Shown here: positions 3,466 to 11,645 of the stretch, in pieces | How the letters are laid out: each line of letters opens with the position of its first letter | How positions within the stretch are numbered: the first letter of the stretch is position 1 | Assembly: GCA_963724765.1 (NCBI GenBank) | Contig: CAVRVY010000004.1 | Span: 1,280,001-1,344,000 of the forward strand | Source: an uncultured delta proteobacterium | GTDB taxonomy: Bacteria; Desulfobacterota; Binatia; Binatales; Binataceae | Direction of reading: 5' to 3' | Length of the DNA stretch: 64,000 nt | Notes under the pieces: model-generated | Seen by the model: only the letters and a program-made list of their open reading frames with translations | What the model was told of the DNA's origin: nothing | Databases searched by the model: none | Position numbers and translations under genes: made by a program

Positions 3466-4843
3466 CGCCAGACCGCCCGGACCGCGGGGGCACCTGCTGC
3501 TCGGCAGCCTGCGCGAGGTGCAGCGCGAGCCTCTCAATCTTCTGCGCGACGGCTTTCGCCAGCACGGCGACATCGTGCGCTACCGCTTTGGCAGCACGAG
3601 CGCCTTTCTCCTCGCCCATCCCGACCACATCCGCCACGTCCTACACGACAACCATCGCAACTACGACAAGCATACCATCGACTACGCGATGCTGGGCCGC
3701 CTGCTTGGTAACGGCCTGCTGACCAGCGACGGCGCCTTTTGGCATCGCCAGCGGCGGCTGATAGCGCCGATGTTCCATCGCCAGCGCGTGGCCGGGTTCT
3801 GCAAGCTGATGGTCGACAGCACGCTCGAGATGCTCGACCGATGGGACGTTCTGGCGCATAGCGGCGAGCCCTTCGACGTCGTCGCCGAGATGACCCGGCT
3901 TACGCTCGTGATCGTGGCCAAGGCACTGTTCAGTGCCGACGTGAGCGACGATGCCGAGGCGATTGGCCCGGCCCTGACCGAGGTCAACCGCCAACTCGGC
4001 GAGTTCAGCCTGCTCGACCTGATCCCGGTGATTCCGACGCCGCGCAAGCGGCGCTTTCGCGCGGCCGTGCGCGCGCTCGACGAGGTGGTAAGCAAGATCG
4101 TCGACGAGCGCCGCCGCGCGACGTATCGCAACGAGGACTTGCTCTCGATGTTGCTCGACGCGGTCGACGAAGAGACCAGCAAGGTAATGACTGAGCGCCA
4201 GGTGCACGACGAGGTGCTGACCCTGCTGCTGGCCGGTCACGAAACCACCGCCAATGCGTTGGCGTGGACCTGGTACTTACTTGCGCAAAACCCCGAAGCC
4301 GCCGACAAGCTCCATCACGAGATCGCCGGCGTGCTCGGCGAGCGCGCACCCGGCGGCCTCGACCTGCCGCAACTCCCTTACACCCGGATGGTGATCGAAG
4401 AATCGATGCGGCTTTATCCGCCAGCCTGGGCAATTTCACGCAACGCCATCAGCGAGGACGAGATCGGCGGCTACCGCGTCCGGCCCGGGACCAACATCAT
4501 CATTTGCAGCTTCGTCACCCATCGCCATCCCGCCTTCTGGGCGGAGCCCGAACGCTTCGACCCCGAGCGCTTTTCGCCCGCGCGTTCCGAGGGACGCCCT
4601 AACTTCGCCTACCTGCCGTTCGGCGGCGGCCCGCGAGTTTGTATCGGCAACGTTTTCGCGATGAGCGAGGCACAACTGGTCGTGGCGACGGTGGCCCAGC
4701 GCTATCGGCTGCAGCTTGCGCCCGGGCATCCGGTGGAACTCCATCCGCTGGTCACCCTGCGTCCCCGCCACGGGATACGGATGACGCTGCATCCGGCCGA
4801 CGACGACGCCGCCGCCGAGACTCCCGATCGCGCCGCCCGCTGA
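3455..4843 (+). CDS. Cytochrome P450
   Basis: AGHETT I-helix, EESMR (ExxR), PERF, FGGGPRVCIG heme-binding Cys; TTG start overlaps the upstream gene. Confidence 0.95.
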   Translation: MAPSARPPGPRGHLLLGSLREVQREPLNLLRDGFRQHGDIVRYRFGSTSAFLLAHPDHIRHVLHDNHRNYDKHTIDYAMLGRLLGNGLLTSDGAFWHRQRRLIAPMFHRQRVAGFCKLMVDSTLEMLDRWDVLAHSGEPFDVVAEMTRLTLVIVAKALFSADVSDDAEAIGPALTEVNRQLGEFSLLDLIPVIPTPRKRRFRAAVRALDEVVSKIVDERRRATYRNEDLLSMLLDAVDEETSKVMTERQVHDEVLTLLLAGHETTANALAWTWYLLAQNPEAADKLHHEIAGVLGERAPGGLDLPQLPYTRMVIEESMRLYPPAWAISRNAISEDEIGGYRVRPGTNIIICSFVTHRHPAFWAEPERFDPERFSPARSEGRPNFAYLPFGGGPRVCIGNVFAMSEAQLVVATVAQRYRLQLAPGHPVELHPLVTLRPRHGIRMTLHPADDDAAAETPDRAAR

Positions 4844-4879
4844 CAGTCACTCGCTGGCTTCAGTTTTTGCGTGGCTGTC

Positions 4880-4908
4880 ACTCCCTCCCCAACTGATGGG
4901 GAGGGAGT
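4880..4908. terminator. 12-bp perfect inverted repeat between convergent genes (terminator or REP-like)
   Basis: ACTCCCTCCCCA-actga-TGGGGAGGGAGT. Confidence 0.55.
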
Positions 4909-4957
4909 TAAGATCCGACCTTCATCCCTCATCAACTATTAGGTGAACGCTCCGCGG

Positions 4958-5602
4958 CTATGCCTTGACCGCATCGGGCTGACGTTCGGGATGCGCGGCG
5001 GCGAAGGCGTCGAGCTTAAGGCACTCCTCGTTGATCCGGCGAATCGTCGGATAAGGCGCCAGGTCGAGCTTGACCCGGCCGGCATTTAAGATCTGCGGCA
5101 CCAGGAAAATGTCGGCCATGGTCGGCGTATCGCCGTAGCAAAATCGCCCGGTCGCGCGCGACTCATTCAGCATCCGCTCGATCGCGGCGAAGTTGAGCGC
5201 GATCCAGTGACGGCACCATTCGTTCAGCTCGTTTTCGCCGGCGTTGAAATGTTCCCCGAGGAACACTTGCGTGCGCCGACTTGCCAGCGGATGAATTTCG
5301 CAGGCAATGTTCAGCGTGATCGCGCGCACGCGGGCCCGCCCCGCCGGATCGCGTGGCAAAATCGCCGGGATGGGAAAGCGTTCCTCGAGGTACTCGCAGA
5401 TCGCCATCGATTGCGGGACTATTACGCCGTCGTCCTCCAGCGCCGGCACGATCCCCTGCGGATTGATCCGGCGATATTCCTCGCTCCAGGCCTCGTCCTT
5501 CAACAGGTTGACCGGAGCGTACTGGTACTTGAGCCCTTTCAGATTGAGCGCGATCCGCGCTCGGTACGCGGCCGACGATCGAAAATATCCGTAGAGCTTC
5601 AT
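4958..5602 (-). CDS. maiA: Maleylacetoacetate/maleylpyruvate isomerase (GST zeta class)
   Basis: MKLYGYFRSSAAYRARIALNLKG N-terminus; QSMAICEYL; AHPERQPD C-terminus. Confidence 0.92.
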   Translation of the reverse strand: MKLYGYFRSSAAYRARIALNLKGLKYQYAPVNLLKDEAWSEEYRRINPQGIVPALEDDGVIVPQSMAICEYLEERFPIPAILPRDPAGRARVRAITLNIACEIHPLASRRTQVFLGEHFNAGENELNEWCRHWIALNFAAIERMLNESRATGRFCYGDTPTMADIFLVPQILNAGRVKLDLAPYPTIRRINEECLKLDAFAAAHPERQPDAVKA

Positions 5603-5699
5603 GGCGGCACTCCTGTGGTCATGCGCGAAGGTCTGCGGCGACGATCGCCAAAGGGACGGACTAGCCGCAGGGATTTAGCGCAAGGACTAAGCGGAACGG

Positions 5700-6164
5700 C
5701 TACCGATAGATCATATGGATCGAAAGCGCGAGAACGCCCTTGCCCGCGTATTGAACCTTGCACTGATCGAATGACGGCGCCCTGAGCGTCGGATTTACGT
5801 TATTGGTGAATCCATAGCCCTCGAGCGGGTAGCCGAACCTGCGGTCGAATTTGCCGTTGCCGTTTTCGTCGTGAAACACGGTCGCGGCGTAGGCCCCAGC
5901 CGCCAGCCCCTTGAATTCGCACACGCCTTTATCGCCTTCGATAGGCACCGAAACTTCGTGCGACTCCGTGCCAGTTTTTGTAAATTCAGCGGAGTTCGCG
6001 CCCGACCATAGCGAGCAAATCACGGAGCCTTTCTGATTGCGCACGCCGTCCACGACGATGCGGATTTCGTTCGGCTGCGCCACCGGTTGCGAATGTGCGA
6101 TACACGGCGCGAGCACAAATCCAATTGCCATCGCGCACGCCAATGTGAAGAGTTTGGGCTTCAT
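5700..6164 (-). CDS. DUF2141-family exported protein
   Basis: Signal peptide; G.YA..VFHDENGNGKFD...P.EGYGFTNN and PSFD motifs. Confidence 0.85.
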   Translation of the reverse strand: MKPKLFTLACAMAIGFVLAPCIAHSQPVAQPNEIRIVVDGVRNQKGSVICSLWSGANSAEFTKTGTESHEVSVPIEGDKGVCEFKGLAAGAYAATVFHDENGNGKFDRRFGYPLEGYGFTNNVNPTLRAPSFDQCKVQYAGKGVLALSIHMIYR

Positions 6165-6243
6165 TCCTAATTTTTCCTCATGCCGCACGATCGATTTCTC
6201 CCAGGGATGCTCGCGAGATGTTTGTGGTCAAGCGCTCGCCCGA

Positions 6244-6960
6244 TCAGTGCTTGCCGTAGTCGAGCGGTACGCCCTTGCGCTGCGCGTAGATGTAGGCTTC
6301 GAGCGCGCGCAGCTTCGGATCGTTGGGGTCGAGCGCCTTGCCCTTGATCGGATTCTCGATGCACCAATCGATCATGTCGCGCAGCAGCGCGACCCGCTGA
6401 AGCTGGACCTGGTACTTGGGATAAGTCTCGGGATGCGTATTGGCGGCGTCGGGATGGCACATGTCGCAGCTTATTCCGATCGTGCTGCCGAGCGCCTTGG
6501 AGTCGTGAAAGATGCGCTTGCCGTCGGCGACGAACTTGTCGGTCTCGGCTTTCCAGACCTTGTAGTCGCGCGGCTGAAAGCTCGCGTACGTGTCGCCCTG
6601 CTGGACGGCCAGCGAAGGCGCCGCCGCGGGGGCTTGCGTACCTGACATTGTCGCTGTCGAGGCCTTTGGGCTCGCCGGTGAGGCTTGGGCAACTTCCCAG
6701 CGCTCGCCGGGATGCGCGCGTCGCCATTGGTCCATCAGTTCGTCGCTTACCGCCTGCGCCTGCGCGCGCGACATCGTCTGTCCGGGCTCTAAGTTCTTGA
6801 CCTCGATACTGGTCTTGCCGTCGCAGAGCATCACGACCGTGCCGCCGCTGTGGGCCGCGGGAACGTCGTGGGTAGCTGCCTGCTGCGCATACGAGCGCGC
6901 CAGGCCAGCGGCCGCGATCGTGGTTCCAAACATCAGGAGGACTATTCGTTTGGAGATCAT
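6244..6960 (-). CDS. Exported monoheme cytochrome c, SoxA/TsdA-like domain
   Basis: Signal peptide; CDMCH; downstream YPKY...LRDMIDWCIENPIKG...LRALEAYI resembles SoxA/TsdA heme domains. Confidence 0.75.
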   Translation of the reverse strand: MISKRIVLLMFGTTIAAAGLARSYAQQAATHDVPAAHSGGTVVMLCDGKTSIEVKNLEPGQTMSRAQAQAVSDELMDQWRRAHPGERWEVAQASPASPKASTATMSGTQAPAAAPSLAVQQGDTYASFQPRDYKVWKAETDKFVADGKRIFHDSKALGSTIGISCDMCHPDAANTHPETYPKYQVQLQRVALLRDMIDWCIENPIKGKALDPNDPKLRALEAYIYAQRKGVPLDYGKH

Positions 6961-7002
6961 TGTCGCCTCGTCGAATGAGAACCGTCGAGTATCGGTTGGC
7001 GA

Positions 7003-8151
7003 TCAATAGCTCGCGAACTGCGGCGCGGGCGGGCGATAGACCTTGCCATGCGATCGCAGGTATTGCGCGCGCACCGTGACCGGATTGCGGTCCCACAGGT
7101 TGTACATCATATCCGCCAGCCCTTCCTTGCTGACATTGACCTGGCCGTCACCGAGCCCGTCGAGCTGGTCGTACGGATCGGCGCGATTCATCTGCACTGT
7201 GAGCGGCGGCAATCCCTGCGGCGCGTAAGGCCATGGCCAGGCAGTCGAGAGCATTCCGTAGAAGCTGATGTTGGCGATCTGGTTGAAGAGCATCTGATGC
7301 GTGTGGCCATGGATTACGGTGACGTGGGGGTAGGGCCTGAGCAGCGCCTGCACCTGATCGGCGTCTTCGGTCCAGAAATTCCAGTTGCGGTAGTACTTAT
7401 AGAGCGGCGAGTGTGAGAACACGAGCAGCGGCGTGGTGGCCGGCACTTTGGCGAGGTCGCCTTTGAGCCATTCGCGCTCCTGGTCGCCGACTTCGAAGCG
7501 CGACTGAATCGGATTGTCCAACCCCGCGACGATTTGCATCCGCTCGGCCGGGGTCAGCTTGCGCGCGGTCCAGAAATCCTTCTCATGCACGCTCATCAGG
7601 ACGATTACGTGCACGCCTTTCCAGTCGAACGAATAGTTGGGCGGGCCGAACAGCTCCTGCCATTTCTCGCCCAAATCGTAAAACCAGTCATGCTCCCCGA
7701 CCATCATTTTGACCGGCGCCTTGAGCATCGAGAGAATTTCCTTGCCCTGCTGCAGTTCCTCGGGCCGCCCCAACTGCGCCAGGTCGCCGCCGAACAGCAC
7801 AAAATCGGGCTGTGGATCGAGCGCGTTGACGTCCTCGACCGCTTTGACCGCGCCTTTGACGAAACGCTGATTGAGCGTCCGCACGTACATGTGCGTGTCG
7901 GAGATATAGGCAAAAGTAAACGGCGGCGTTCCCGACAGGCCGGTCGCGCTCGCGCTCTTGTCCACGGCCGCCTCGGCTACGTTGACGAGCTGAAAGGTAT
8001 GCGGCGGCATTAGACCCTTGGCCATCACGGCGCCGGCGCTCGCAGCCAGGACTTTCAGGAAAGTGCGGCGATCGAGCCGGCGCATCCCGCGCAGCACCGC
8101 CTCGCGATCTTCCATGTATTTGGTTTCGACGCTCTTGTGCCGTACCGCCAT
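7003..8151 (-). CDS. Tat-exported calcineurin-like metallophosphoesterase
   Basis: DRRTFLK twin-arginine motif; SDTH, GGDL, GEHD, SHSP and HGHTH metal motifs. Confidence 0.85.
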   Translation of the reverse strand: MAVRHKSVETKYMEDREAVLRGMRRLDRRTFLKVLAASAGAVMAKGLMPPHTFQLVNVAEAAVDKSASATGLSGTPPFTFAYISDTHMYVRTLNQRFVKGAVKAVEDVNALDPQPDFVLFGGDLAQLGRPEELQQGKEILSMLKAPVKMMVGEHDWFYDLGEKWQELFGPPNYSFDWKGVHVIVLMSVHEKDFWTARKLTPAERMQIVAGLDNPIQSRFEVGDQEREWLKGDLAKVPATTPLLVFSHSPLYKYYRNWNFWTEDADQVQALLRPYPHVTVIHGHTHQMLFNQIANISFYGMLSTAWPWPYAPQGLPPLTVQMNRADPYDQLDGLGDGQVNVSKEGLADMMYNLWDRNPVTVRAQYLRSHGKVYRPPAPQFASY

Positions 8152-8179
8152 GACTTTGCTTCCTCGTGGATAAGGATCG

Positions 8180-9478
8180 TCAGTCGCCGCCGAGTAGCGC
8201 GGGATTCTCTTCGCTCTGTGCCGGCGTCATATCACCGAACGGTCCCTTGAAGCCGGGACCGAGGCCGGACTTGCCCATCGCGGCCGCCTCGTCGCGCTGA
8301 GGACGCTCGGTCTTGGCACGTGCGCGCTGCTTTTCGAGCTCCTCGTTCGCCGCGCTCGCGTATTCGGGACTGGTCAGAGTCGCGAGGAAAGCGACGAGGT
8401 CATCTTCTTCGGATTCGCTGAGTCCGAGCGGCAGCAGGCCGCCATCGAGGTAAGGGTTCGGTACGCCGCCTTTATTGTAGTGATCCAGAACGTCCCACAG
8501 CGTCGGCTGCGAACCGTCGTGGAAGTAGGGCTGCGTCACCAGCAAGTTGCGCAAGCCCATCGTTCGGAAGCCGCCGATATCATGGGCCTGTTTGGTTACG
8601 AGGAAACGCCCGAGCCCGCTCATGTCGGTTTGGATTGCGAGTCGGTCGAGCTGCTGCAAACCGCCGCCGCCCTGCGCGATCAATAACAGCGCTTTGCGCG
8701 CCAGCGGAACGAAGTCCGACTTATGCGCAGATACGCCAATATTATGAAAACGATTGTCAGTGAACAGCGGCTGCGTCGGATTCCATCCGTGGCAAGTCAT
8801 GCAGCGGCCCTTGCCGTTGAACAATGACCATCCGCGTTTGGCGCTGGCATTGATGGCGTTCTGATCGCCCGCCATAAAATGGTCGAAGGGCGTATCGAAG
8901 GCAACCTGCGTGCGTTCGTAAGCCGCGATCGCCTTCTCGATATTGTCCATCGTGATTGCGCCGTTGAATACGGCCTGAAACGACTGCTGATAGTCGGAAA
9001 TCGCCTTCACCTTGCCGACTACATCGTCGAAGCTCTTGTTGCCCATTTCGACCGGGTTGAGGATCGGGCCTTCGATTTGTTTCTCCAGCGTTGGCGCGCG
9101 GCCGTCCCAAAACTGGAGCGTGTTGAACAGCGCGTTCAAAACGGTCGGAGCGTTGCGCTGTCCGAAAGCGTGATGAATACCCATCGAGGTCGGGAGCTGA
9201 TCGGTGAAACCCTTGGCGGGCGAATGGCACTGGTCGCACGATACGGTGCCATCGGCAGAGAGCCGATCGTCGAAGAAGAGCTTACGGCCGAGCTCTACCT
9301 TTGCCGGCGTCTGTGGATTATCCGCCGGTATTACCCACGAATAGAGCTCGGCGGGGAAGCCGGTCTGATTGTTCGGCTTGGGTGCGGCGAGCGGAACCGA
9401 CTCGTCGGCGCCCACAGTTGTCATCAAGGCAATCGCTACGGCGCAGAGAATCACCGGTGTGAACAGCCTGGCTCTCAT
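8180..9478 (-). CDS. Diheme cytochrome c peroxidase/MauG superfamily protein
   Basis: CAGGAGGAGG RBS; signal peptide; CDQCH and CMTCH; RNAPTV, QFWDGRA, PYFHDGS. Confidence 0.92.
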   Translation of the reverse strand: MRARLFTPVILCAVAIALMTTVGADESVPLAAPKPNNQTGFPAELYSWVIPADNPQTPAKVELGRKLFFDDRLSADGTVSCDQCHSPAKGFTDQLPTSMGIHHAFGQRNAPTVLNALFNTLQFWDGRAPTLEKQIEGPILNPVEMGNKSFDDVVGKVKAISDYQQSFQAVFNGAITMDNIEKAIAAYERTQVAFDTPFDHFMAGDQNAINASAKRGWSLFNGKGRCMTCHGWNPTQPLFTDNRFHNIGVSAHKSDFVPLARKALLLIAQGGGGLQQLDRLAIQTDMSGLGRFLVTKQAHDIGGFRTMGLRNLLVTQPYFHDGSQPTLWDVLDHYNKGGVPNPYLDGGLLPLGLSESEEDDLVAFLATLTSPEYASAANEELEKQRARAKTERPQRDEAAAMGKSGLGPGFKGPFGDMTPAQSEENPALLGGD

Positions 9479-9701
9479 TGCCTCCTCCTGACAGCCGGTC
9501 GAAACCTCGAAGTCTACAAGACATCCTGACACGAAGCCTCAGGCCGTTGGCAACACGCTCATCGGCACCTGACCCAACCAGGTTAGAAAAGCTTCTCGCG
9601 AATCGAGACGGAATTTCCGTCTCTGAGTTCCACCCTCGTCGGCGTATAGCAAACCCCACCCGCCTTCGCAAAGTTTACGCAAACTTCAAAGGATGGCAGT
9701 T

Positions 9702-11645
9702 CTACGATCTCGCCATTGGGAACTGTGACGTTTCGGCGCGGCCGGCAGCGGTGGCGGGCGGCCGTAGCGCGGCGGGATCGAGATTCGGTCCGCGCAGATG
9801 AATCAGCCGGCCGTCGGCGCCGTCGCGCTCCGAGAGCCATCGTGCGACGATCGCCATCGCGTCCAGTTCATCGCGTATCACCGGCCGCGCGCGATAGCCC
9901 TCGTAATTCGCGGCCACGAATTCCGCAACCGCCTGCGCATCACCGGCTTCCGCGACCGCACGGCTCAGCGCGAGCCGCCCGCTCAGCACCACATGCGCGA
10001 GCGTCGAGGCGCCAGCGCCTGCCACGATCACGAGATTGTTCTCGGTGACGACGCGGCTTAGCCGCTCGGCGCGCGCGGCGAGGGTGGTGAGCGAGGTCAG
10101 CTCGCGCTTAAACCGCGCGGCCTCCTCGAAACGCATCGCGCGGGCCGCCTCGTCGCGCGCGCGAGCCAGTTCGCCGAGCAGAGGGCCGCTGCGTCCGCGC
10201 AGGAATTCGACCGCGCGCCGCACTCGCGCGCCGTAAGCGTCTTCGTCGGCGCTCAGGTTGCACGGCATCGCGCAGTGCCCCATCTGGCCGTACATGCACG
10301 GCGAAAAATCCGCGTATGGCGCGAGCTTGCCGACGCAGGTGCGCAATCCCAGGATACGCTCGAGTGCGCGCATCGCGCGGTCTACCCCGCCCCGGCCCGC
10401 GAACGGCCCAAGCTGCATCATGCCGCGGCGCGCCGAAAGCCTGGTCGAGAGCGTCAGCCGCGGAAAGGCGTCCATCAGGTCGAGCCGCAAGAAGTACGCC
10501 TGCGCCATCCCCTTGAGCATCCGGTTGTACGGCGGTTTGAGTTCGCGGATGAGCCGCGCCTCGAGCAGCGCGGCGTCTAGCGCCGACAGCGTCACCCGCG
10601 CATCGATCATATAAACGTGGCTTACAAGATCGGCGGTCTTGGCGTCGATCGTCATGCCGCCGTTGAAATACGAGGCAACCCGCTCGCGCAGACGCCGCGC
10701 CTTGCCGACGTAGAGCAGATCGCCACGCTCGTTGCGCATCAGGTAAACTCCGGGCGCCATCGGCAGAGCCGCGATCGCTTCGGGTGCGACGTGACGCTCG
10801 ATCCTGCGGCCGGCGGCGCCGCGGCTGTGCAGATCGATCAGCCGGTCGACGCGGGTAATACCGCTTTGCGCGGCGATGTCGAGAAAGATCGACAGCAGCT
10901 CGGCCGCCATTCGCGCGTCACCGAGCCCGCGATGGCGGCCCTGGGTCGAAAGCCCGAAATGTTCGGCCAGCGCGTCGAGCCGGCGCCGGCGCAGCGAGGG
11001 CGCGAAGCGGCGCGAGAGCCTGAGCGTGCACAACACCGGGTTCTTGAGCCCCATCCCGAACACCCGGCGGAACTCGAAGTCGAGGAACGCGAAATCGAAC
11101 TGCGCGTTGTGCGCGACCATCACCGCGTCGCCCAGAAAATCGCGAAACGCCGGCAGCACGCGCTCGATTGGCGGCGCGCCGGCCACCATCTCATTGGTGA
11201 TCGACGTAAGCCGCGTGACGAAGGGCGAGATCGGACCGCGCGGGCGCACCAGAGTCGCGAACGATTCCGTCATCCGCGGACCTTCCATCCGGTACGCGCC
11301 GATTTCGGTAATCGCGCCGGGGCCGGGGCGCCCGCCGGTGGTTTCGAGATCGACCACCACGTAGCGGCCCCGTTCCAGCGGCACCTTCAGCGCCTCGCTC
11401 GCGCGCAAGGCCCACATCCCGCTCGCGCCGTCGAACACGAAATTCGGATCGCCGGCGAGCAGGCGGTGAACGATACGCGGGCCGAGTTCGGGGTCGGAAC
11501 CTGCGCCCTGAAAGAGCAGGCCAACCAATTCGTCGGTGTGCGCGCCGGCTATCTGGCGCTCGAGATAAGCGTAAAGCTTCTCGCGCGCGGTTGCGCCTGA
11601 ATAACGATGCTCGAGGTCGAAAGCTGCCACAGCCCCATCCACCAC
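9702..11645 (-). CDS. DEDDh (DnaQ-like) exonuclease fused to UvrC/Cho-type GIY-YIG nuclease and UVR domain
   Basis: VVVDLETTG, AHNAQFD, HRGLGDA; PGVYLM..LYVGKA..LRERV; P.YN; Cys cluster; FEEAA motif. Confidence 0.88.
   Translation of the reverse strand: MVDGAVAAFDLEHRYSGATAREKLYAYLERQIAGAHTDELVGLLFQGAGSDPELGPRIVHRLLAGDPNFVFDGASGMWALRASEALKVPLERGRYVVVDLETTGGRPGPGAITEIGAYRMEGPRMTESFATLVRPRGPISPFVTRLTSITNEMVAGAPPIERVLPAFRDFLGDAVMVAHNAQFDFAFLDFEFRRVFGMGLKNPVLCTLRLSRRFAPSLRRRRLDALAEHFGLSTQGRHRGLGDARMAAELLSIFLDIAAQSGITRVDRLIDLHSRGAAGRRIERHVAPEAIAALPMAPGVYLMRNERGDLLYVGKARRLRERVASYFNGGMTIDAKTADLVSHVYMIDARVTLSALDAALLEARLIRELKPPYNRMLKGMAQAYFLRLDLMDAFPRLTLSTRLSARRGMMQLGPFAGRGGVDRAMRALERILGLRTCVGKLAPYADFSPCMYGQMGHCAMPCNLSADEDAYGARVRRAVEFLRGRSGPLLGELARARDEAARAMRFEEAARFKRELTSLTTLAARAERLSRVVTENNLVIVAGAGASTLAHVVLSGRLALSRAVAEAGDAQAVAEFVAANYEGYRARPVIRDELDAMAIVARWLSERDGADGRLIHLRGPNLDPAALRPPATAAGRAETSQFPMARS

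Follow-up and report, generated by a model that had tools for sequence, protein, structure and literature searches.

A conserved trio of exported MauG-like dihaem enzyme, metallophosphoesterase-fold dimetal protein and SoxA/TsdA-fold cytochrome, most likely dedicated to peroxide-linked redox chemistry

The subject of this analysis is an operon on the minus strand of a 64,000-nucleotide stretch of DNA (hereafter, the window) from an uncultured delta proteobacterium of the Binataceae (NCBI GenBank assembly GCA_963724765.1, contig CAVRVY010000004.1, positions 1,280,001 to 1,344,000 of the forward strand; positions below are those of the window). Gene A (8180-9478, start ATG at 9478) encodes a 432-residue exported MauG/MbnH-like dihaem enzyme (Pfam CCP_MauG, PF03150, 7e-59); gene B (7003-8151), a 382-residue metallophosphoesterase-fold dimetal protein exported by twin-arginine translocation (Tat; Pfam Metallophos, 2e-15); gene C (6244-6960), a 238-residue exported monohaem cytochrome of SoxA/TsdA fold (Pfam PF21342, SoxA-TsdA_cyt-c, 1.9e-9); and gene D (5700-6164), a 154-residue exported DUF2141 protein (Pfam DUF2141, 2.9e-25). 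The gaps A-B, B-C and C-D measure 28, 42 and 79 bp, and a GAGG/AGGAGG-like site precedes each of the four starts. Export signals, assigned by eye from the translations, comprise Sec-type N-termini in A, C and D and a twin-arginine motif in B. Open reading frames (ORFs) and Pfam matches thus bear out the first-pass annotation of this DNA, which had described four co-directional, closely spaced and uniformly exported genes. The source genome spans 5.4 Mb in 4 contigs and is 97% complete.

Conservation of gene order divides the first three genes from the fourth. An alignment of B homologues was used to scan one genome per species, yielding at least 580 confirmed relatives, and the best 80 of these loci, fetched with B alone, were compared with the window proteins by tblastn. 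A, B and C occur in the same order and on the same strand in 78 of the 80, which derive from Binatia, many Myxococcota, Methylocella/Methylocapsa and Acidobacteria, encode B proteins with 63-94% identity, and have intergenic gaps of mostly 1-60 bp. One of the two remaining loci (L067) stops just after B; the other (L079) shows no A within its 810 upstream nt, and was rejected as a clean exception on finding that an A fragment starts another contig of the same genome. A DUF2141 gene follows the trio in only four of the 80 loci (L001, L002, L003 and L018), and flanking genes are otherwise variable (68 ORFs around 12 diverse loci). The first-pass annotation had proposed that the genes work together and had named neighbourhood conservation as a check; as this was run, the proposal holds for A, B and C and fails for D. 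Comparative sequence evidence therefore supports A, B and C as a single putative functional unit, to which D appears to be only a neighbour.

This arrangement extends well beyond close relatives. A metagenome scan returned at least 576 matches to B, among them a second clade (clade 2; 80 metagenome loci) in which B is approximately 47% identical to that of the window and the A-B-C order is kept; all three ORFs are complete in 36 of these loci, separated by gaps of 10-15 nt or sharing 4-nt overlaps. Within a phylum sample of 201 genomes a close B is present in five, and all five carry the trio. A copy on a Methylocystis plasmid is flanked by transposases. The trio is therefore a patchy, mobile three-gene cassette. 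Rare clean fusions join A to B (P0121 and P0122, in which the twin arginines are lost at the junction) and, in a single instance, B to C (P0233). Other apparent fusions were rejected: P0123, P0155 and P0196 are artefacts of frameshifted stretches; an 843-residue open frame in genome G137 is a high-GC overprint; A and B share one frame in L083, L115 and L152, with a stop between them; and P0124, which joins a metallophosphoesterase to a beta-propeller, was judged unrelated. In one genome of the phylum sample the trio is followed closely by a second strong CCP_MauG gene (G197:C76:15583-16065). Literature searches, with subscription journals and supplements outside their reach, found no paper that treats the trio or reports a metallophosphoesterase bearing a CuA or cupredoxin centre. 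We conclude that the operon is genuine and widespread, and undescribed within the reach of these searches.

Gene A carries two haem-binding motifs: CDQCH (residues 81-85; 9224-9238, minus strand), which by homology would hold the five-coordinate, peroxidatic haem, and CMTCH (residues 226-230; 8789-8803, minus strand). The cysteines and histidine of both (C81, C84 and H85; C226, C229 and H230) are invariant among homologues (n = 49), as are the inter-haem W124, the distal Q134, P138 and E144, and Tyr334 in the motif DHYNKGG (8477-8479, minus strand), a candidate axial ligand of haem 2 in an enzyme of His/Tyr type. The position of the canonical Met ligand is not conserved, the window protein having L348 where many relatives have Met, and the residues around 101-103, which correspond to the canonical distal His loop, are likewise not conserved and have the consensus GIxxQxG. 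Among solved structures, the N-domain matches canonical cytochrome c peroxidases (CCPs) at 161 bits, the C-domain at only 24-27 bits, whereas the MbnH-like structure 6e1c aligns over one full-length stretch (31-374; 155 bits, E 2.6e-44) and is the closest relative of the C-domain; the BthA-like 6nx0 scores only 64.6 bits. Tyr334 aligns with the Tyr of 'DIYSEGG' in 6e1c, and an alignment with MauG (55-337 with 5-297) pairs it with chain position 294; the sections available to us of PMC6405878 discuss both a Y294H variant of MauG and Tyr463 in BthA.

With two CxxCH motifs in a CCP_MauG fold and Tyr as the probable haem-2 ligand, A appears to be of the MauG/MbnH/BthA type and not a canonical His/Met cytochrome c peroxidase. 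The first-pass annotation had placed it so, and the invariance of Tyr334 and the replacement of the Met segment agree. The highest-scoring NCBIfam models are MbnH (TIGR04039, 221.7 bits) and MauG (TIGR03791, 209.3 bits). A is nonetheless not an equivalog of either: of MauG, because the score falls below the cut-off of 443.85 bits and the window holds no mau genes; of MbnH, because the score falls below the cut-off of 362.85 bits and the genome contains no match to MbnP (TIGR04052). A is the strongest, and the only strong, CCP/MauG-family gene in the source genome.

Gene B, present in single copy in that genome, is exported via the twin-arginine motif RRTFLK (residues 28-33; 8053-8070, minus strand), in which R28 is found in 49 of 49 homologues and R29 in at least 90%. 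Compared with the DxH, GD, GNH[D/E], H and GHxH motifs of metallophosphoesterases, four motifs are present and invariant, and the predicted fold matches; the metal-ligand residues D85, H87, D123, H247, H283 and H285 are invariant (n = 49). Motif III alone departs, reading GEHD rather than GNHD (residues 152-155; 7687-7698, minus strand), so that in the GpdQ alignment 'pgnhd' stands opposite 'vgehd'; of 58 family members, with identities as low as 29%, 55 retain Glu153. Foldseek searches with the model of B (predicted local distance difference test, pLDDT, 65) returned GpdQ first (2dxl, 3e-11), then Rv0805, then purple acid phosphatases. Purple acid phosphatases are defined by a Tyr ligand in a GDxxY motif; at this position B reads GGDLAQLG, and its assignment to that class was rejected on the missing Tyr and the lower Foldseek rank. 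Assignment as a SoxB thiosulfohydrolase was also rejected, SoxB (TIGR04486) being absent from the NCBIfam matches of B and from the genome. An unusually long N-terminal extension (residues 1-25; 8077-8151, minus strand), modelled as a helix, precedes the twin arginines; K6, E9, T10, E14 and R16 are invariant in 14 close homologues, and among 34 clade-1 sequences E9 and R16 are invariant and T10 is kept in at least 90%, while clade 2 lacks the extension. It may provide a binding site for a dedicated Tat chaperone.

The wider family of B comprises 2335 representatives at 50% clustering (E <= 0.001), and an Atlas search with B returned only clusters labelled as metallophosphoesterases or putative phosphatase. 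Eight mid-distance relatives from the phylum sample were examined within 1.5 kb, a span in which none of the eight has a MauG-like gene. In one (L170, 1243-2400, minus strand) the B relative is joined in one protein to a cupredoxin bearing a full CuA motif; in another (L171) a CuA cupredoxin gene lies 8 nt downstream; and in a third (L174) an ORF with CxxCH lies upstream. Among the best 120 clusters around the L170 protein (P0276-P0395), 119 combine Metallophos with cupredoxin and 118 bear the complete CuA motif CxxxCGxxHxxM; all 120 read GEHD, and none reads GNH[D/E]. Proteins with GEHD and a C-terminal CuA cupredoxin make up a large uncharacterised clade with Tat signals, whose database names include 'cupredoxin domain-containing protein' and 'Icc-related phosphoesterase/plastocyanin'. 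Elsewhere in the family, B relatives are fused to a plastocyanin/azurin-type cupredoxin (P0237) or a Rieske domain (P0210), and on a Ralstonia megaplasmid the B relative is followed by a separate gene for a 125-residue CuA cupredoxin. As a hydrolase has no evident need of carrier domains, we read the GEHD proteins as redox enzymes; the wiring of its relatives to plain electron carriers points to B as a putative redox enzyme in its own right.

Gene C contributes a cytochrome with a single haem motif, CDMCH (residues 165-169; 6454-6468, minus strand), in which C165, C168 and H169 are invariant, and a candidate sixth haem ligand, the equally invariant Cys200 (6361-6363, minus strand; n = 49 for both). 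The latter aligns with position 96 of the TsdA chain which, after correction for an offset of 27 residues in chain numbering, is Cys123. C is the sole PF21342 match in the genome (37.8 bits, cut-off 27), and scores 36.3 bits against the SoxA equivalog TIGR04484, below its cut-off of 110. In TsdA, Arg109, Arg119 and Ser127 hold thiosulfate and Cys123 is a haem ligand, according to the portion of PMC4423706 at our disposal. Since these Arg, Arg and Ser positions are occupied in C by Gln186, Met196 and Pro204, each invariant (n = 49), C is probably a His/Cys cytochrome of SoxA fold that lacks a thiosulfate pocket. Family searches of the 97% complete source genome found no match to SoxY or SoxB, which further weakens the analogy with Sox chemistry drawn in the first-pass annotation. 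In clade 1, C is composed of a small N-domain, a Pro/Ala-rich linker and the cytochrome; clade-2 proteins (137 residues) have only signal peptide and cytochrome. The N-domain (residues ~28-90; 6691-6879, minus strand) has invariant H31, C46, D47, G48 and M76 in 33 clade-1 sequences and is modelled as a beta-hairpin and helix (pLDDT 82-89), with no Pfam family match and no fold match; the model of C as a whole (pLDDT 64) gave nothing below E = 3 by Foldseek against the Protein Data Bank (PDB). This domain could bind metal or serve as a thiol carrier.

A further feature of B may relate to its partners. The motif W305-P-W307-P-Y309 (in STAWPWPYAP; 7225-7239, minus strand) is invariant in trio-type B: the pattern GHxH...WxWP is present in all 154 trio-type B ORFs of at least 330 residues, whereas the same pattern is found in none of the 120 CuA-fused relatives, 117 of which read [YFW]PLP, and in none of the eight relatives without A. 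As a strict marker of A the motif was rejected, given that Sinorhizobium B proteins have WxW, with C and without an adjacent A; WxW therefore goes with haem partners generally, and tracks C at least as well as A. W305 falls on chain position 217 of GpdQ in a weak second alignment stretch, a position that would correspond to a second-sphere active-site His.

The conserved trio, the intact site of B with its GEHD motif, the carrier-wired family to which B belongs, the rare A-B and B-C fusions, the ligands of A, and regulator genes beside some loci (described below) together lead us to propose, tentatively and at somewhat less than an even chance, that A, B and C constitute a self-contained periplasmic oxidoreductase in which B is a redox-active dimetal enzyme, C its carrier and A a peroxide-driven partner. 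B would be the catalytic centre, with a two-metal site that has Glu153 as an extra carboxylate ligand and performs electron-transfer chemistry rather than plain ester hydrolysis. C, with a His/Cys haem that is probably of low potential, would act as the dedicated electron carrier of B, in the role taken by the fused CuA, type-1 copper or Rieske domain in relatives of B. A, with its His/Tyr haem, would react with H2O2 at the five-coordinate haem and draw electrons from B or C, probably by way of the partner-specific WPW tryptophans next to the metal site of B, such that the net effect would be oxidation at B coupled to peroxide reduction. The redox activity of B, the direction of electron flow and the use of H2O2 are all what we infer. 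Tyr-ligated BthA is described as turning over H2O2 when given an electron donor, in the available text of PMC6405878. At a coarser grain, the trio most likely performs peroxide-linked redox chemistry rather than phosphate-ester hydrolysis.

Several observations weigh against this three-protein oxidoreductase. B retains every residue that a hydrolase needs, including His154 of motif III, so that it could still hydrolyse; and it could equally be a reductase fed by C. Five of the eight mid-distance relatives have no recognisable carrier within 1.5 kb. The placement of WPW near the metals depends on the weak GpdQ alignment, and the model of B is of moderate quality (pLDDT 65). Plasmids of Sinorhizobium and Phyllobacterium (L198 and L201) encode a CarboxypepD_reg-like protein, B and C, without A, which makes A dispensable in this variant. 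In addition, the Tyr-ligated enzymes MauG and MbnH modify target proteins and are not turnover partners, in the sections of PMC11951088 open to us. Prediction of a complex between A (45-378) with two haems and B (62-382) gave a score of 0.00 in two runs without controls, which is no evidence either way.

A broader extension of the same proposal, possible but rather doubtful at present, is that the GEHD branch as a whole is made up not of hydrolases but of an undescribed class of dimetal oxidoreductases, Tat-exported to the periplasm, numbering thousands and wired variously to carriers of CuA, type-1 copper, Rieske or haem type. The trio would then be the peroxide-driven version, in which a MauG-type enzyme draws electrons via the WPW pair, and might oxidise either an oxyanion at a phosphate-like site (for example sulfite, phosphite or arsenite) or else a metal ion.

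The main rival follows the logic of mau and mbn, and we consider it unlikely, if far from negligible. A would act once per molecule of B, its bis-Fe(IV) state oxidising Trp of the WPW motif to kynurenine, hydroxy-Trp, a quinone or a cross-link, and thereby equipping the dimetal site with a ligand or cofactor; once matured, B would exchange electrons with C, much as methylamine dehydrogenase (MADH) does with amicyanin. The best full-length characterised relative of A is the MbnH-like 6e1c, in which the Tyr is conserved, and MbnH makes kynurenine from Trp in the WxW motif of MbnP, as reported in the part of PMC11951088 available. The distribution of W305-P-W307 given above, universal in trio-type B and absent from both sets of relatives, also suits such MbnH-like modification. 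BthA, moreover, invariably occurs close to a putative purple acid phosphatase, which the authors propose as the protein that BthA oxidises, to judge from the accessible parts of PMC6405878; these same parts confirm the first-pass statement that Burkholderia BthA is encoded beside a phosphatase. Two findings tell against maturation. Sinorhizobium B has both WxW and C with no A beside it, and Sinorhizobium is absent from the 75 plasmid records that match A (E <= 1e-40), a search of plasmids and not chromosomes. Further, the A-B fusions suit a permanent complex better than a once-only maturase.

Quite unlikely, in our estimation, is that the operon serves oxidant detoxification. A and B would both be reductases fed by C, in an operon induced by envelope or oxidative stress, with B using a di-iron-like site to reduce O2, superoxide or NO (a reaction that might yield H2O2) and A converting H2O2 to water. 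Regulatory neighbours lend this some appeal. In genome G137 (L162:5550-7000) the trio adjoins genes for an extracytoplasmic function (ECF) sigma factor and its zf-HC2 anti-sigma partner. Homologous pairs accompany it elsewhere (L044, L055, L058, L067, L071-L073 and L075), in three arrangements: upstream on the same strand, divergent, or downstream. A like pair adjoins the Ralstonia sister operon, with ferritin and a 2Fe-2S protein nearby, and LysR regulators lie upstream of the trio in L057 and L064. That A is the only strong CCP-family gene in the source genome is also consistent with a protective role, and CuA domains feed electrons to the reductive sites of cytochrome oxidase and N2O reductase. 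Against this, sigma and/or anti-sigma matches were found in only 9 of 160 loci, flanking genes being otherwise variable; B has no homology to a known oxidant reductase; and a His/Cys haem is an unusual donor.

Less probable again, with only a slender chance, is the absence of any joint mechanism, B being an ordinary secreted phosphodiesterase or phosphatase and A a peroxidase with C as donor, encoded by genes that are merely co-regulated. In its favour, B has intact catalytic motifs, and the solved structures closest to it in fold are phosphodiesterases. In the source genome, A may also, or instead, be a trans-acting MauG for four orphan MADH light chains. The first-pass remark that the window lacks mau, mbn and sox genes stands, and whole-genome searches extend it in finding no SoxY, SoxB or MbnP; it does not extend to mau, in that four MADH light-chain genes (PF02975), with heavy chains, lie on other contigs (genome G000, contigs C1 and C2; L193-L195). 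Two of the four light chains score above the TIGR02659 cut-off. One cluster also encodes MauE, two cytochromes c, a pyridoxal phosphate-dependent decarboxylase and a MauD-like redoxin, which we take to be of the kind expected for MauD. None of these clusters contains a MauG, and A is the strongest CCP/MauG gene available. However, PF02975 occurs in only 2 of the 201 genomes of the phylum sample (G000 and G036) and is missing from all four of the other genomes in that sample that carry the trio, which excludes MADH as the conserved target. The genome also encodes a second Tyr-type dihaem candidate, P0396 (L196:5908-7407, contig C3), a CCP-like protein of 500 residues with two CxxCH motifs, a C-terminal 'NFYNDRF' and a PF03150 score of 35.8 bits, which is a candidate distant MauG-like enzyme. 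More generally, a shared mechanism of A, B and C is favoured by their strict co-linearity in several phyla, the very short gaps between them and their rare fusions, and the GEHD motif and carrier fusions separate the B family from known phosphoesterases.

Rhizobial loci supply a link to sulfur metabolism: here the variant with B and C belongs to an island that also holds SCO, hemA, groL and a cytochrome oxidase of cbb3 or other type, and on S. meliloti plasmids the B-C genes are convergent with those for an FCSD flavoprotein, a cytochrome c, SoxZ and SoxY, neighbours that are absent in Phyllobacterium. SoxB, too, is a dimetal enzyme exported by Tat, from the superfamily to which B belongs. A Sox-like chemistry of S or P oxyanions, in which C would attach a sulfur compound to a thiol group (which in clade 1 might be the N-domain Cys46 of C itself), B would act as a SoxB-like hydrolase and A would remove electrons, could draw on these loci, on the SoxA/TsdA fold and ligand Cys of C, and on the invariant Cys of the tethered clade-1 domain, yet we hold it to be very improbable, in view of the replacement of the Arg/Arg/Ser of TsdA by invariant Gln/Met/Pro, the lack of SoxY and SoxB matches in the source genome, the lack of the Cys-bearing N-domain in clade 2, the absence of sox neighbours in Phyllobacterium and in the flanks of 12 diverse loci, and carrier fusions in the B family that would be unexpected for a hydrolase.

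The operon sits within a co-directional minus-strand run of six genes. Upstream, separated from A by a 223-bp gap, a gene at 9702-11645 encodes a 647-residue protein that combines a DEDD (DnaQ-like) exonuclease with a GIY-YIG/UvrC-like module (PRK07883 type); at the other end, downstream of D, lies maiA (4958-5602, minus strand), encoding maleylacetoacetate isomerase. One terminator-like hairpin (9608-9594, minus strand) lies between the exonuclease/GIY-YIG gene and A, and a promoter and terminator scan of 4800-10000 gave counts no higher than those in shuffled sequence. Genes for dienelactone hydrolase and cytochrome P450 (2761-4843, plus strand) lie just downstream of the operon together with the isomerase gene, and this neighbourhood looks like one of aromatic catabolism.

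MauG-type dihaem enzymes perform long-range, high-valent oxidation, with targets known so far only for MauG and MbnH. The trio is a second case in which such an enzyme is paired with a protein of metallophosphoesterase fold, and a far more widely distributed one; because the operon or its variant is carried by culturable, non-pathogenic Myxococcus, Corallococcus, Methylocapsa and Sinorhizobium, the question of the partner is directly testable. Should the B family prove to be redox-active, the common 'phosphoesterase' annotation (Icc, CpdA, serine/threonine phosphatase) would be wrong for thousands of exported proteins, and an old fold would have acquired a new catalytic use.

Several known systems resemble the trio in part. 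The likeness of C to SoxAX and TsdA resides in the cytochrome fold and the ligand Cys; unlike SoxAX, SoxB, SoxYZ and TsdA, the trio has the anion-binding Arg/Ser replaced, no SoxX, no NCBIfam SoxB signal in B, and a genome without a SoxY or SoxB match. The mau cluster similarly encodes together a His/Tyr dihaem enzyme, its target enzyme and a small carrier, and employs Trp-mediated long-range oxidation, as far as the source material available to us describes it; A, however, falls below the MauG cut-off, genomes that lack MADH light chains also carry the trio, and B is unrelated to MADH. MbnH resembles A in offering the best full-length solved relative (6e1c), the top NCBIfam model and an aligned Tyr motif, and MbnP resembles B in having a conserved WxW beside a metal site, in the text at hand of PMC11951088. 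Unlike MbnP, the partner of A is a dimetal protein of metallophosphoesterase fold rather than a copper protein, a cytochrome belongs to the unit, and the genome contains no MbnP-like gene.

BthA and PhosA of Burkholderia offer a parallel in organisation (Rizzolo et al., 2019; PMC6405878, in the sections available): a dihaem enzyme of MauG type with Tyr/His ligation is invariably encoded close to an exported member of the metallophosphoesterase superfamily, a putative purple acid phosphatase. There, the function of BthA is given as unknown, its authors proposing oxidation of a partner whose identity is an open question. Unlike BthA as these sections describe it, A keeps the inter-haem Trp, and matches 6nx0 at 64.6 bits against 155 bits for 6e1c; B has a fold nearest to GpdQ and Rv0805, with purple acid phosphatases ranking lower, and the trio adds a His/Cys cytochrome. 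GpdQ and Rv0805, as class III phosphodiesterases, give the best sequence and fold matches to B, and all metal-ligand positions align. B differs from both in having Glu for the Asn of motif III, Tat export, approximately 90 extra C-terminal residues that include WPW, and membership of a family in which the same fold is fused to electron carriers.

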